A stretch of DNA of 64,000 bases. It comes from Cyanobacteria bacterium P01_D01_bin.156. GTDB taxonomy: Bacteria; Cyanobacteriota; Cyanobacteriia; Phormidesmidales; Phormidesmidaceae. Shown here in pieces: positions 39,120-49,262 of this stretch. Within the stretch, counting starts at the first letter, position 1. Each line of letters begins with the position of its first letter. The stretch lies in assembly GCA_039024555.1 (NCBI GenBank), contig JBCCQQ010000026.1, positions 1 to 64,000 on the forward strand. The letters run 5' to 3'. The notes beneath the pieces are model-generated. The model was not told the DNA's origin and did no database searches. It saw nothing but the letters and a program-made list of their open reading frames with translations. Both the position numbers and the translations under genes were made by a program.

Positions 39120-39509
39120 CTAACGATCTTGCTCTAGCAAATCTCGAATTACTTTAAGTTCGTCTAGCACCTGGCGTAGGAGCTGATGGGTCAACGTTTC
39201 TGTGGGCTGACTTACTTCAATGGTGACCTGTTTAATGCCGAGAACATCCTGGGCAAATCGGGCCACTTCATTGGGATGAAACATCAGCGGATCGTCTTTA
39301 TGCTGCCTGCTTTCAGGGTTGAGTCGCTTATGGTCAAAGGCCGGATTTAGCTTGAGAGGCTCCGTATTGGCATAGCGATAAACCGACGCCCGCGAGCGGT
39401 TGAGTACTTTTTGGACAGCCTCAACGGTCATCAGATTCTGGGTTGTAGCATCCACGGTACTAATGGCGGCAGTAACTCCATCCAGGGCGTTGGCTAAATC
39501 AGAAGACAT
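39120..39509 (-). CDS. Small HTH (excisionase/MerR-like) DNA-binding protein with C-terminal coiled coil
   Basis: LMTVEAVQKVLNRSRASVYRY HTH; LLRQVLDELKVIRDLLE amphipathic tail. Confidence 0.75.
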   Translation of the reverse strand: MSSDLANALDGVTAAISTVDATTQNLMTVEAVQKVLNRSRASVYRYANTEPLKLNPAFDHKRLNPESRQHKDDPLMFHPNEVARFAQDVLGIKQVTIEVSQPTETLTHQLLRQVLDELKVIRDLLEQDR

Positions 39510-39578
39510 GGAGGCTTTATATCGTGGTTATGGTTAGACACACTTTACTGATATTGAGCCTCACGTCAATACTTGGTT

Positions 39579-39920
39579 GTCTATTGTTAAGACGTTGATG
39601 GAGTGAAACAGAATGCTAGATCGCGTAATTTATTTGTCTCAAGATAAGATTATCTGTATTGCAATAAGTCTAAAGTTAATTTTTTAAATCTCATTTTGAG
39701 ATAAATAATCGATAGTCGACACTAAGAAATAGCGCCCTTTTTCCAAATTTGGAACGCGATTGTTTAATTTCTTCTGGTTGAGACTTCTACGTCAATAAGA
39801 GTTTTTGAGATAGCACTCATTTTGTTGAGACCATGACTGCTAAGAATGTCTCTGTCTCATTTTAAGACTTATGTTATCTACTTAAGTCTATTTATGACTC
39901 TATAAATCTTAAAATGAGAC
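39579..39920. promoter_or_regulatory. Cluster 1 of 15-bp palindromes RTCTYA-NNN-TRAGAY (two triads)
   Basis: Full sites at 39636, 39688, 39854, 39906; degenerate sites at 39579, 39668, 39886; extra half-sites at 39779, 39806, 39826. Confidence 0.85.
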
Positions 39921-40047
39921 TTATTTGTTTTATTAGCTGCGTAGCGATCGCAACTCCGAGATAACTCATCTCTTTGCCTTGACGCGACTAACCAACTTTG
40001 AACTAAACGTCACAGGGCAGATTCGTTTGTTCTTATGAATTAGCTGA

Positions 40048-40461
40048 CTATGCTTTTGCCTGAAATTGTTCGCGAATGGTTTCCATTCGTTTGCGGTTTA
40101 CGCCTAGGTCTGACTTGCCGAGTCGAGCTGCTGCACGTACTTGGATAACACCTGAATTGGGTGCGGCATAAAATTCAACGTCGTCGACAAAACCCATTAG
40201 TTTGCTAGAAAACTCGGCGTAGAGATAGGTGTCGGTAGCTTCATTGATGGTGGACCGCTCCATGCCTTCGATGATGCTTTTGAGGAGTGCGATCGCATCC
40301 GCTGGAGATTTATCTGTGGCAATGGGGGCAATGTAGTGTTCGTTATCGCTGGTCTCTGCCTGGGTGCTGACACAGTTGGGGGTGCCTGGGCAGGCGAGGA
40401 GCTGTCCTTGGGTTACTCCTAAATTGTCGGGACGCTTGCCGGAAAATGAAAAGAGAGACAT
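40048..40461 (-). CDS. DUF1499-like protein
   Basis: LACPGTPNCVS, GFVDDVEF, GKSDLGVNRKR. Confidence 0.88.
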   Translation of the reverse strand: MSLFSFSGKRPDNLGVTQGQLLACPGTPNCVSTQAETSDNEHYIAPIATDKSPADAIALLKSIIEGMERSTINEATDTYLYAEFSSKLMGFVDDVEFYAAPNSGVIQVRAAARLGKSDLGVNRKRMETIREQFQAKA

Positions 40462-40806
40462 AACAACACCCTTTGCGTACAGTAGACGGCAGTGACTCTG
40501 GGCTATGGAAAACCAGGACAGACGGAATTAGCCCAACGGCTCTAAGGCTCATTAAAACGGATAACTGTCAGGCGGTTGAATTCCTTATTCTTTCTTTATT
40601 GTACGCTTGAGGTGTTTCGATATTTAAGGAGTGAACCTACGTTGGTTAATCTCTCTCGATTTGGCTCTTCTTTGTAAACAACAATTTTTAGGAAGTCCTT
40701 CGTTTGAATGCACTTGGACCGCGAGGGGCAGTCACTTCGTCCTTGGGAAAGGGCCGTTGCTGGTTGGCAACTGGATTTACTGAATGTGGATATGGCGTGG
40801 AAGTGA

Positions 40807-40873
40807 ATCTTAAAGTGAGATCGATGGCCTCTTTTTGAGTCCTGTTGTGGACTACTTAGTCTTTATTTGAGAA
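40807..40873. promoter_or_regulatory. Cluster 2 of the 15-bp palindrome (one triad)
   Basis: ATCTTAAAGTGAGAT (40807), GCCTCTTTTTGAGTC (40827), GTCTTTATTTGAGAA (40859). Confidence 0.75.
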
Positions 40874-41356
40874 TAAGCCTGAGCTGCGTTTTTGGTTAAG
40901 CGAGTGGCTTGGCTAAAAACCGATAGAGGCGATTTCCGTTGATTTTGCTGCGGAGTGGCAATGGAATGAATGGATCGTGGTCCACAGTAAAGATTTGTGG
41001 TTTTTAAAAGGCTGGATGCTTTGTGGGGTATGGTTTAGCTGCTGCTTAAAAGGTGGCTAAACACTTCAGAAAAATATGGCTTATTTTTAGTCCATTTTTA
41101 GTCCACTGGACTTACAGACTCTTATAAAACCCTTGACATTATTGGGATTTTATTTTTTGAATATTTGCTTAGTACGCAACTAGTCAATCGCGTTTTCTGA
41201 GCCTATGCAGGTATTCGATATTCAATCACTGCTGGGAGGGAGTCCCCCCTTGTCAGATACGTGAAGAAGGGGCGGGCCAAACAACAAGGCGATATCCTGA
41301 TTAATCGACCTCGCCGTAACTCCTAATTAATGCCATTAAGGACAACCTAGTAGGCT

Positions 41357-41429
41357 GGGTTGTAGGGCGGCCTCCCGGCCCTGCCCAGAGGGTTTGGGGA
41401 ACTCGGCGGGACCCCAAGCAACCGGTTTT
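41357..41429 (-). repeat. Dispersed GC-rich hairpin repeat, family A copy 2
   Basis: Reverse-complement match to 5361-5433. Confidence 0.8.
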
Positions 41430-41602
41430 GGCTCCCATTCGAGCCGATGATTCAGTATCAACAAACCCACAAGCCTTACAGATTTTCTATGGTAAACACG
41501 AAATAACCCTGCTCTCGAGAGGGGATTTGGTCGGTAGTCTGCTGGATGGTTCTTGCCTACAATGATGTAGTCGATACCCTGCGTATCTGGTAAATCACCC
41601 CT

Positions 41603-47521: not shown

Positions 47522-47710
47522 GGTTAGCGATTTTCAAGAGGCGCATCTAGCTTAAACCAAAAAACTATGCCAGATCAGGAGCTAGATCATCAACCACAGT
47601 TTAGTCAAATTTCCCTCAAAACAGGCCCATTGATAAAAAATCACCCCAACGGGTGCCACCCGCCAAAAACACCAGGCTTTGCTCCACCAGCTGCCAGACC
47701 AAAAACGCAA

Positions 47711-47967
47711 GACTCAAAATGAGACTAGTGCTCTTAAAATGAGTCTCGATATTGAAGTCATCAATCTTGAATTGAGACTGATAATTTTTACCCGCAGAGA
47801 GTCTTGCCTTAGCCCTACCAATTCTCAAAGTGGCTTCAGCTTTCAAAAGCCACCACTTGATATCAGTCATTCAAATCAGCAGCACCAGCACAAAACATCT
47901 GTCTCAAAATAAAATTAATCGTCTTAAATTAAGTCTTAAAATAGTTATTTTAATCTCTTCTTAAGAC
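47711..47967. promoter_or_regulatory. Cluster 3 of the 15-bp palindrome (two triads)
   Basis: Sites at 47711, 47731, 47764 and 47901, 47921, 47953. Confidence 0.82.
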
Positions 47968-48072
47968 TGGCTTTTCAGTCAAAGAAAGCTACTCATCTAG
48001 TAAAGAAACAACCGGTTAGGAATGCGCGGAAAAATAATGGACCCATTGAGAGGCTTGGCGATAACTGGTTCG

Positions 48073-48163
48073 CCTTACGAAGGGGAACCGTCAGGGAGGG
48101 GTTTTCGACACTGGCGCTATCAATCGAAACCCCTCCGCCTACGGGCACCTCCCCTTCGTAAGG
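48073..48163. repeat. REP-like nested long hairpin
   Basis: CCTTACGAAGGGGA...TCCCCTTCGTAAGG enclosing GGAGGGGTTTTCGA...TCGAAACCCCTCC. Confidence 0.75.
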
Positions 48164-48241
48164 GGAGGAAATCTCATAGCGTAATTCCAAACCGGTATTC
48201 TATTTATTCGCAATTCTCTTATCTACTCCCAAAAACTTTTC

Positions 48242-48823
48242 CTATGCCAAGGTCCAGTCAAATTCCATCTGCCTGGCCGTCTTCTTCGCCAAATCCAGAC
48301 TATGCAACTTACTAACCAAATACAAACTCATATCAATACCTGCAGAAATCCCCCCCGACGTCACCACATTGCCCGCATCAACCCAGCGAATATTTTCTTG
48401 TACATCCAACCCTGGATACTGCTGACGTAGGTCCGGAATATCTTCCCAGTGGGTTGTCACCGATTCTGTAGTAATCACCTGAGCAGCTGCCAGCAAAAAA
48501 GCCCCCGTACAGACAGATGCCGTCACCTTAGCCGTTTTCGCCTGTTGCCCAACCCAACTAATCACCTCAGGCTTAACCATTTCCGCCGTATGCACACCTC
48601 CCACAATTATCGGCACATTAATCTCCAAATGATCATCAAACCCATAGGTGGGCACAACTTGATAACCACCCCGAGCAGTTACCATCTCCCCAGTTTGGCT
48701 AATCAAAAATGTTGTAAAGGGAGCACCATCAGAACAAACTCTAGAGGCCGTAGAGAATACTTCAAACGGACCCGAAAAGTCCAAAACCTCCGCCTGGTCG
48801 TAGATATAAATACCGATGTTCAC
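48242..48823 (-). CDS. DJ-1/PfpI-family protein (isonitrile hydratase-like)
   Basis: EVLDFSGPFEVF, SVCTGAFLLA, TTHW, TSGGISAGID; GTG start after GGAGG. Confidence 0.88.
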   Translation of the reverse strand: MNIGIYIYDQAEVLDFSGPFEVFSTASRVCSDGAPFTTFLISQTGEMVTARGGYQVVPTYGFDDHLEINVPIIVGGVHTAEMVKPEVISWVGQQAKTAKVTASVCTGAFLLAAAQVITTESVTTHWEDIPDLRQQYPGLDVQENIRWVDAGNVVTSGGISAGIDMSLYLVSKLHSLDLAKKTARQMEFDWTLA

Positions 48824-48980
48824 CCTAACCTCCAGAGTTTGACCTAACAACATCTGATTTGCCACATCAATATTAATTAAAGTGTTCCATCCTTGCTAAT
48901 TACGCCATTTATGGCCTGTATGCACGCCATCGATAGGCCAGTAGTGGAATTAGGTGAAGTGCATAGCTGTGGTTCGTGTA

Positions 48981-49057
48981 AGGGAGACTAGTCTCAAAGC
49001 CCCCAGGATTGAAGGTTTGGGGCCAGAAAACGTTTAGCTATTTTGACGATCGCTTGC
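48981..49057 (+). repeat. Dispersed repeat, family B copy 2
   Basis: Similar to 5615-5694. Confidence 0.6.
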
Positions 49058-49195
49058 CCTTAGAAATTCCTTTAATAGACACATTAGGCATACCGGAATT
49101 TGGGAAGCCCCAGTATGCCTAATTGGAAAAACACGGATGCGTCCGTAAAGGGCACTAATACCGCATTTTTAGTCTGAGATATGTGTACACGGTAA

Positions 49196-49262
49196 GTCCT
49201 AAGTTGAGATCAATAGAGTTTAATTGAGACTTGACTTAAGCCTATCTGTATTGAATTGAGAC
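49196..49262. promoter_or_regulatory. Cluster 4 of the 15-bp palindrome (one triad)
   Basis: GTCCTAAGTTGAGAT (49196), GAGTTTAATTGAGAC (49216), GTATTGAATTGAGAC (49248). Confidence 0.72.

Follow-up and report, generated by a model that had tools for sequence, protein, structure and literature searches.

A candidate dif-equivalent site with polar repeat units, an unlinked tyrosine recombinase and a Xis-like winged-helix protein in a cyanobacterial group

The DNA stretch analysed here, referred to as the window (64,000 nucleotides; contig JBCCQQ010000026.1, positions 1 to 64,000, of Cyanobacteria bacterium P01_D01_bin.156, assembly GCA_039024555.1), carries between positions 39,120 and 49,262 a gene for a small helix-turn-helix (HTH) protein, a cluster of repeat units and a site resembling the core and arm sites of a tyrosine recombinase. 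A model that had read the letters alone (the original prediction) had described helically phased triads of a palindrome beside the HTH gene and had proposed an undescribed DNA-architectural system, acting either as a centromere-like element or as a regulator of neighbouring genes. The following features were located, with coordinates given within the window:

39120..39509, minus strand: HTH gene, encoding a 129-amino-acid MerR/Xis-like winged-HTH protein with a C-terminal helix, the presumed binder of the units
39525..39593, no strand assigned: unit 1, degenerate, 27.7 bits, likely the autoregulatory operator of the HTH gene
39636..39702, plus strand: unit 2, centre AGTCT on the plus strand, pointing toward the core, 54.3 bits
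39854..39920, plus strand: unit 3, toward the core, 52.0 bits
40807..40873, plus strand: unit 4, toward the core, 42.9 bits
41083..41105, minus strand: arm-type direct repeat TGGACTA-N4-TGGACTA plus A/T tail, 11-bp period, the only exact match in the genome
41157..41187, no strand assigned: recombinase-type core with 12-bp inverted arms and a 7-bp spacer, candidate cyanobacterial dif, core-plus-arm score 64.2
47711..47778, plus strand: unit 5, centre AGTCT on the plus strand, against the polarity rule, 49.2 bits
47901..47967, plus strand: unit 6, against the polarity rule, 50.5 bits
49196..49262, minus strand: unit 7, centre AGACT on the plus strand, toward the core, 49.2 bits

Every dyad site of the form RTCTYA-NNN-TRAGAY named in the original prediction was found to be present. 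Exact dyads number five in the window (0.04 expected) and eight in the whole 6.6-Mb genome, three of them outside the window, and the genome-wide check of motif and spacing revealed 52 bp as the commonest dyad spacing. Grouping and helical spacing of the proposed triads were borne out; the count of three sites was wrong, as the unit consists of four dyad sites. It is polar and 67-69 bp long, with dyad positions 0, 20/21, +12 and +20/21, and its inner two dyads overlap by 3 bp around TRAG-W-CTYA. Owing to this anatomy, the '32+20' and '20+32' spacings represent one and the same unit. According to the consensus, short AG-W-CT cores are spaced 12, 8-9, 12, 12, 8-9 and 12 bp apart, i.e., approximately one per helical turn, and the idea of helical phasing therefore stands. 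Seven units occur in the genome, all within 39,525-49,262, including the degenerate one at 39,525-39,593, which had been missed before. Screening of the genome with a unit weight matrix, which is partly circular as it was built from 54 units including those of the window, gave seven matches of 27.7-54.3 bits, all in the window, and 11.3 bits as the best value elsewhere. Likewise, 300 shuffles of 3,393 intergenic bases peaked at 12.9 bits, below all seven units.

Across relatives, 87 of 89 units are intergenic, ten of these 87 lying between convergent genes. When units were oriented by their central base, the dyad located 5' of the central AGTCT was the stronger outer dyad in 67 of 84. Distances from unit to core reach 25 kb (median 1.6 kb), and clusters span 0.2-27 kb. 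A half-unit pattern matched in 65 of 80 relatives, with mostly one cluster per genome among the matches listed, and was without match in five of six relatives lacking the HTH gene. Outside the family it reached approximately control level (301 genomes) and is thus unusable there for presence/absence calls. The full-unit pattern with three mismatches was too strict and found nothing in five genomes.

No unit was found at the candidate at 694 kb in genome G193 or at that at 148 kb in G125. Dyads repeated in two genomes were set aside, since they belong to repeated, insertion sequence (IS)-like elements. In one of these (loci L074-L076, G302, many copies), the repeated element has a TGT end and contains, besides a single exact dyad, a stretch that weakly resembles a unit (18.6 bits); in the other (L077-L079, G303), one dyad lies just upstream of a transposase, which we take to be IS5-like.

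Inspection of the point at which the orientation of the units switches led to the core. Its layout is TTGA-N4-TTGC, a 7-bp spacer and GCAA-N4-TCAA, followed after 52-53 bp by TGGACTA-N4-TGGACTA. This is the architecture known from the attachment (att) site of phage lambda, in which a tyrosine-recombinase core is combined with arm-type sites. With the core-plus-arm model, the window site scored 64.2 and the next best in the same genome 16.9; exactly one core was present in each of 22 clusters, and one in the genome of the window. Among 32 aligned sites, the second arm repeat is invariant, the spacing from core to arm is constant to a base, and the spacer differs freely between genomes within a nearly fixed TGC/GCA frame. 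Left of the core, 22 units have T and seven have A as central base, and right of it 14 have T and 40 have A (Fisher p 2e-5), the majority orientation (62 of 83) being toward the core. Units lie on both sides in 15 of 22 genomes, and 7 of 22 clusters are one-sided.

In 80 genomes searched with a core profile, a strong site was detected in 19 of 20 recombinase-positive family genomes versus 2 of 12 recombinase-negative ones, and none of 22 HTH-negative cyanobacteria had a site above 20 bits. By profile, a diverged form of the core was found at the antipode of G123, G193 and G205; a pattern search added the sites of G207 and G038. AG-W-CT arrays occur at most 0.4 kb from the three picocyanobacterial core sites. 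Furthermore, each of the six replicons of G373, the chromosome and five small ones, has a single site; at the sites of the small replicons, neither units nor a nearby recombinase gene are present. G342 C2 likewise carries one core site. A search of plasmids with the core returned chance matches only. No second core flanking the cargo turned up in the window's genome, and hence no attL/attR pair. Profile matches in G245, G237, G239, G169, G241 and G259 were weak; that in G245 was dropped because it lies inside a gene. In G123 (C1 1,985,850 and 1,091,398), the HTH gene seems broken and no recombinase orthologue was found, and a core-like site persists at the antipode, possibly representing decay of the system in progress.

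In 12 of 14 long replicons, the distance between dnaN and the cluster amounts to 0.450-0.492 of the replicon, the positions in G339, G342, G345 and G373 assuming that the longest scaffold is the chromosome. Five of the 12 (G038, G123, G193, G205 and G207) were located by the core pattern or model alone, with no prior knowledge of a cluster. After correction for gene strand, the skew at fourfold sites has a positive sign to the left of the cluster in all 12 genomes and a negative one to its right in 9 of 12, with left exceeding right in 11 of 12. This sign pattern, which does not vary with contig orientation, is that of a terminus. A sharp switch coincides with the site in G038. The genome of the window shows strong replichore skew, and the best switch of the contig, at 42,641, falls inside the cluster and is weak (z +2.7/-3.1). 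A centromere-like element, as originally considered, is wrong as to place, since the cluster is antipodal to dnaN and not origin-proximal. The position of the HTH gene was rejected as a terminus marker, as the gene lies 0.03-0.49 from dnaN and only the cluster is antipodal. In G382 (C2 386,951), cluster and core were found on a 0.79-Mb second contig with a weak second dnaN-like match, which is part of the chromosome or else a chromid.

A search for tyrosine recombinases (PF00589) in five genomes yielded one orthologous group common to all five. In the genome of the window, its gene is single-copy and resides on another contig than the site (G000:C22:76,257-77,426); in the 1.6-Mb genome G237 it is the only PF00589 match, 11 kb from the HTH gene. 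The catalytic residues R247, K272, Y329, R332, H355 and Y364 are invariant in 50 sequences. Top-tier matches (at least 307 bits) were obtained in 25 of 28 HTH-positive versus 0 of 273 HTH-negative genomes. Within the family, 4 of 6 HTH-negative genomes lack the recombinase, compared with 8 of 75 HTH-positive ones, and in G312, G322, G324 and G354 it was lost together with the HTH gene, units and core. Moreover, in the fusion proteins P0186 and P0191 the HTH domain is joined to a homologue of the N-terminal domain of the recombinase (E 5e-8 and 6e-9). In 15 HTH-negative genomes there are relatives of the enzyme with 37-44% identity.

Against NCBIfam, the recombinase of the window's genome had no match, and an orthologue scored 38 bits (XerA cut-off 220) and 18.5 bits (XerS cut-off 267). 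The enzyme carries an extra N-terminal domain beyond the simple Xer type. This domain is probably arm-binding; a weak match to Arm-DNA-bind_2 (E 0.008) was seen in one of three orthologues. The structure model (predicted local distance difference test, pLDDT, 42) is too poor for domain reading, and none of the solved structures matches by sequence. In Synechococcus elongatus, the counterpart assigned by position is Synpcc7942_0136, an 'integrase', which is non-essential; its random barcode transposon-site sequencing (RB-TnSeq) values of -0.36 and -0.87 are uninformative, the latter coming from a set with nearly all mutants negative. Non-essentiality is the expectation for Xer-type genes and applies to both the recombinase and the HTH gene in S. 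elongatus. In this species, an array is located 2-3 kb to each side of the core, at roughly 1.36-1.38 Mb of the published coordinates. FtsK (PF01580) was not found in four of five genomes. A 'Cyan' subgroup of recombinases has been proposed as a stand-in for Xer (PMC8138268).

The HTH protein bears the database name 'resolvase', but is without any recombinase or catalytic domain, its sole domain match being a weak one to Pfam HTH_17, below cut-off. Its structure model reached pLDDT 79 with residues 23-129 confident. The best structural neighbours were RdfS, CvkR, Xis and BldC (Z 5.0-5.5), with likeness to BldC, RacA and pSK1 Par at Z 4.2-5.0, values (Z 4-5.5) that are too low for ranking families; Foldseek gave no match at E 0.001. 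Model and neighbours support the analogy with MerR-like HTH proteins drawn earlier, the winged fold being MerR/Xis-like. Identity as a serine resolvase acting on res was rejected, as the 129 residues contain HTH_17 only and no serine-recombinase catalytic domain, and the fold search lists winged-HTH domains. The protein is presumed to be the binder of the units.

The HTH gene is single-copy and was present in 28 of 301 genomes, 165 of which lie outside the class. It is distributed in an all-or-none manner by family, i.e., in 14 of 14 genomes of the picocyanobacterial family, while the counts for three other large families were 0 of 37, 0 of 18 and 0 of 16. None of 72,556 plasmid records contained it. 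Irregular GC skew and DnaA-independent replication have been reported for some cyanobacterial clades (Ohbayashi et al., PMC7198777), and we infer that the HTH-negative families are these clades. The S. elongatus counterpart, assigned by neighbours and length, is the hypothetical gene Synpcc7942_2302, which is non-essential according to supplement rows of PMC5464585 and PMC10653904; its RB-TnSeq values (+0.24 and -0.21) are not significant and uninformative. One published table gives this gene as 97% conserved, which conflicts with the 28 of 301 genomes found here.

Unit 1 overlaps a promoter-like sequence of the HTH gene, TTGACG-16-TAAAGT (39,569-39,542, minus strand), a pattern found twice versus 0.9 times expected and thus weak by itself; in close relatives the unit 1 element also sits at about -88. 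Among 37 related HTH loci, units were found upstream of the gene in 26, with 77 units upstream versus none downstream. The proposal that the HTH protein regulates its own gene is thereby supported, and linkage of units and gene in relatives holds for these 26 loci. It does not hold for several genomes in which the cluster lies 0.1-1.8 Mb away: 114-128 kb in G338 and G361, approximately 205 kb in G355, approximately 1 Mb in G053, 1.36 Mb in G373 and 1.77 Mb in G342. The promoter of the HTH gene is the only recurring target with upstream units. Shared regulation of the caspase gene and the eCIS (extracellular contractile injection system) operon was not borne out, as flanking genes are unrelated between genomes (57 proteins scanned); homologues of Pvc16, sheath or tube were absent from 264 other loci (3.3 Mb). 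This regulon was rejected in view of the lack of recurring neighbours, units between convergent genes and clusters up to megabases from the HTH gene.

Based on the observed sequence anatomy, the single site per replicon, the terminus position, the polarity and the co-occurrence of genes and sites, the locus is proposed to represent the dif-equivalent dimer-resolution system at the replication terminus of one large cyanobacterial group, with lambda-att anatomy and a Xis-like helper, a reading to which we assign a probability of roughly 60%. The more general proposal of an undescribed DNA-architectural system is supported by these results. Which protein binds which site, the occurrence and direction of recombination and the helper's role are inferred as follows. 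The parts of the system would be a core-plus-arm site present once per replicon, a recombinase of the tyrosine type that is single-copy, has an additional N-terminal, probably arm-binding domain and is encoded away from the site, and a Xis-like HTH protein that would coat the polar units around the chromosomal site and repress its own gene. The recombinase would bind core and arm sites, and the HTH protein, arranged head-to-tail on the phased units, would bend or bridge the flanking DNA, thereby setting the geometry of synapsis and the direction. Two sites in a chromosome dimer could then be resolved to monomers, with helper and units replacing the control of XerCD by FtsK and FtsK-orienting polar sequences (KOPS).

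Compared with XerCD/dif and FtsK-KOPS, XerS/XerH/XerA and the plasmid sites cer/psi, the system is alike in having one tyrosine-recombinase core per replicon at the terminus, and resembles XerCD/dif in polar motifs facing the core, plasmid copies and non-essential genes. In contrast, its 31-bp 12-7-12 core with arm-type repeats is unrelated to the 28-bp 11-6-11 dif, the enzyme scores below the XerA/XerS cut-offs and carries the additional N-terminal domain, FtsK is mostly not found (4/5 genomes), and the polar motifs are 67-69-bp units within 25 kb rather than 8-mers along the replichores. The system would thus work like dif/Xer but falls outside this class by site and enzyme.

Several results weigh against the dimer-resolution proposal. 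A total of 21 of 83 units are reversed, including two of six in the window and two of four in G373, and the sites on the plasmids of G373 are without units, implying that the helper is not needed at every site. No unit was present within the fetched DNA at 11 of 37 HTH gene loci, G047 and G291 possess the HTH gene without a recombinase orthologue, and only 3 of 14 picocyanobacteria yielded a credible core site. As to position, the antipode is missed by G303 (0.29) and G301 (0.19 of a partial contig), both of them drafts, G318 has no skew switch, skew around the G193 site is not clear-cut, and the switch at 42,641 ranks ninth among the contigs of its genome. At least 9 of the 20 positive genomes contributed to the core model, the 300-bit cut for the recombinase was chosen after the data had been seen, with the next tier beginning at 284 bits, and the genomes, many of them drafts, are kin, so that counts are not independent samples. 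Furthermore, the genome of the window has an FtsK (PF01580) match on a small contig, and an ftsK gene is reported for one filamentous cyanobacterium (PMC6416890). Finally, a published classification places arm-domain recombinases with mobile elements and dimer resolution with the simple ones (PMC8138268).

An unlikely alternative is that the core is dif-type and that the HTH protein and units form a separate terminus organiser of the MatP/matS or ZapT kind, compacting the terminus or tying it to the division ring without steering recombination. Unit-to-core distances are as large as 25 kb, with a median of 1.6 kb, and Xis sites at att lie closer to their core than this spread; the plasmid cores are without units, and the C-terminal helix seen in the structure model would suit oligomerisation. 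ZapT of Caulobacter, compared by description only, is likewise a terminus-binding MerR-family protein with a C-terminal interaction part (PMC7858052). However, matS and ZapT sites span 0.8-0.9 Mb (PMC7858052) and are linked to ZapA/ZauP/ZapB, as opposed to a tight polar cluster of 0.2-27 kb around a recombination core. Moreover, matS-like binding needs no polarity, yet the units are polar toward the core, and domain fusion and co-loss tie the HTH protein to the recombinase.

Polar sites with opposite orientations on either side of a dif-like site are also the definition of a replication fork trap (PMC6549158), and the units might be polar barriers of the RTP/Ter or Tus/Ter kind that make forks meet beside the core. 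The units flank the core on both sides in 15 of 22 genomes, and, as for tus and rtp, the HTH gene is non-essential, has a site on its own promoter and often lies beside the sites. Autoregulation is known for tus and rtp, and the half-sites of Bacillus subtilis Ter overlap by 3 bp like the inner dyads of the unit. Nevertheless, this explanation appears quite improbable, because a quarter of the units are reversed and would arrest a fork ahead of the core, the trap would extend over only a few kb, much narrower than the known ones, 7 of 22 clusters are one-sided, and the fold appears to belong to a different class, matching Xis/MerR, with RTP not among the 50 structures listed.

The lambda-att anatomy can furthermore be understood as that of a conserved attachment site left or used by integrative elements, with recombinase and Xis-like gene as domesticated leftovers without a role in segregation. 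A 7-bp-spacer core, direct-repeat arm sites at fixed distance and a Xis-like winged-HTH partner are shared with lambda-type att sites and their Int plus Xis or recombination directionality factor (e.g., RdfS). The genes around the site differ per genome and include toxin-antitoxin and caspase modules, relatives of the recombinase exist in HTH-negative genomes (15, at 37-44% identity), and Synpcc7942_0136 is listed as a foreign gene (PMC3025956). This reading is considered highly improbable, since it leaves without reason the antipodal position, the single site per replicon and the survival of the recombinase in a streamlined 1.6-Mb genome that has no other PF00589 match. In addition, no second core flanks the cargo in the genome of the window, and the freely varying spacer is in line with a site whose sole partner is its own copy. 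Unlike lambda-type systems, the genes are single-copy, chromosomal and in most genomes unlinked to the site and to each other, with no attL/attR pair and no bounded mobile element. Motifs of XisA and XisC, tyrosine recombinases of heterocystous cyanobacteria, presumably resemble those of the present enzyme. XisA/XisC lie inside the element they excise (PMC4874684), whereas this recombinase is encoded by a core gene, and its target, if it has one, is a distant site.

That the HTH protein controls the eCIS operon and the caspase gene in addition to its own gene, or serves as the marker of a centromere on the origin side, is scarcely credible: a unit does lie on its own promoter region and the fold resembles BldC, RacA and pSK1 Par (Z 4.2-5.0), but neighbours are not shared, units occur between convergent genes and the position is opposite the origin.

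In extracts of the open-access literature, PMC8995045 among it, no description of the units, the core or the function of either gene was found. Prediction of dif is stated to have failed for Cyanobacteria (PMC3025954), which are described as having 'no predicted dif sites' (PMC6416890), and the S. elongatus terminus as 'not clearly defined' (PMC3480399). No dif site or terminus factor has so far been identified in cyanobacteria according to these sources, and the dimer-resolution system proposed here, for which site, recombinase and helper are named, would fill this stated gap. An arm-domain integrase with a housekeeping function would blur the published division between simple Xer and mobile arm-domain enzymes (PMC8138268). 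The site also offers a sequence marker for the terminus and possibly a plasmid-stability module for cyanobacterial engineering. Since the parts are present and deletable in S. elongatus and retained by Prochlorococcus, the question is testable in weeks. Tentatively, and with the odds somewhat against it, a wider picture can be drawn: Prochlorococcus, Synechococcus, S. elongatus and Leptolyngbya-like cyanobacteria would resolve chromosome and plasmid dimers by a domesticated phage-type Int/Xis pair. An arm-binding recombinase would act at one core per replicon, and the Xis-like protein, polymerised on polar phased arrays, would replace FtsK-KOPS as directionality device and might also hold forks at the site, the system having been lost in polyploid lineages without single-origin replication.

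Regarding the surroundings of the HTH gene, a small TLTLP-motif protein (NF052624; window 38,592-38,819) and ppa follow it in nearly all family loci and in picocyanobacteria. A stand-alone cas6 (window 34,675-35,523) belongs to the conserved downstream block, and no array was noticed nearby in this work. In a remote family (P0186, P0188, P0191, P0194, P0197 and P0200), this HTH domain is joined to a GntR-type HTH.

The cargo between core and unit 5 (window 41,633-47,521) comprises a DUF433-DUF5615 toxin-antitoxin-like pair, DUF2281, two caspase-FGE-sulfatase genes and one Pepco gene. Similar modules adjoin the site in L001, L006, L028 and L036, which suggests an insertion hotspot at the terminus; a transfer RNA or non-coding RNA hotspot was considered for the cluster and none was found. 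The eCIS operon (Pvc16, sheath, tube; window 49,830 onward) lies beside the cluster only in this genome among the fetched loci. A 1,568-amino-acid protein encoded at 27,413-32,119 of the window features two jacalin-like lectin domains and a long coiled-coil and looks secreted or injected. Inside the cluster of another genome (L032:4868-6312), a four-helix-bundle-like small gene and a reverse-transcriptase-like gene follow a TIR/FGE-type gene, a layout which, judged by eye, we take to be that of a diversity-generating retroelement.

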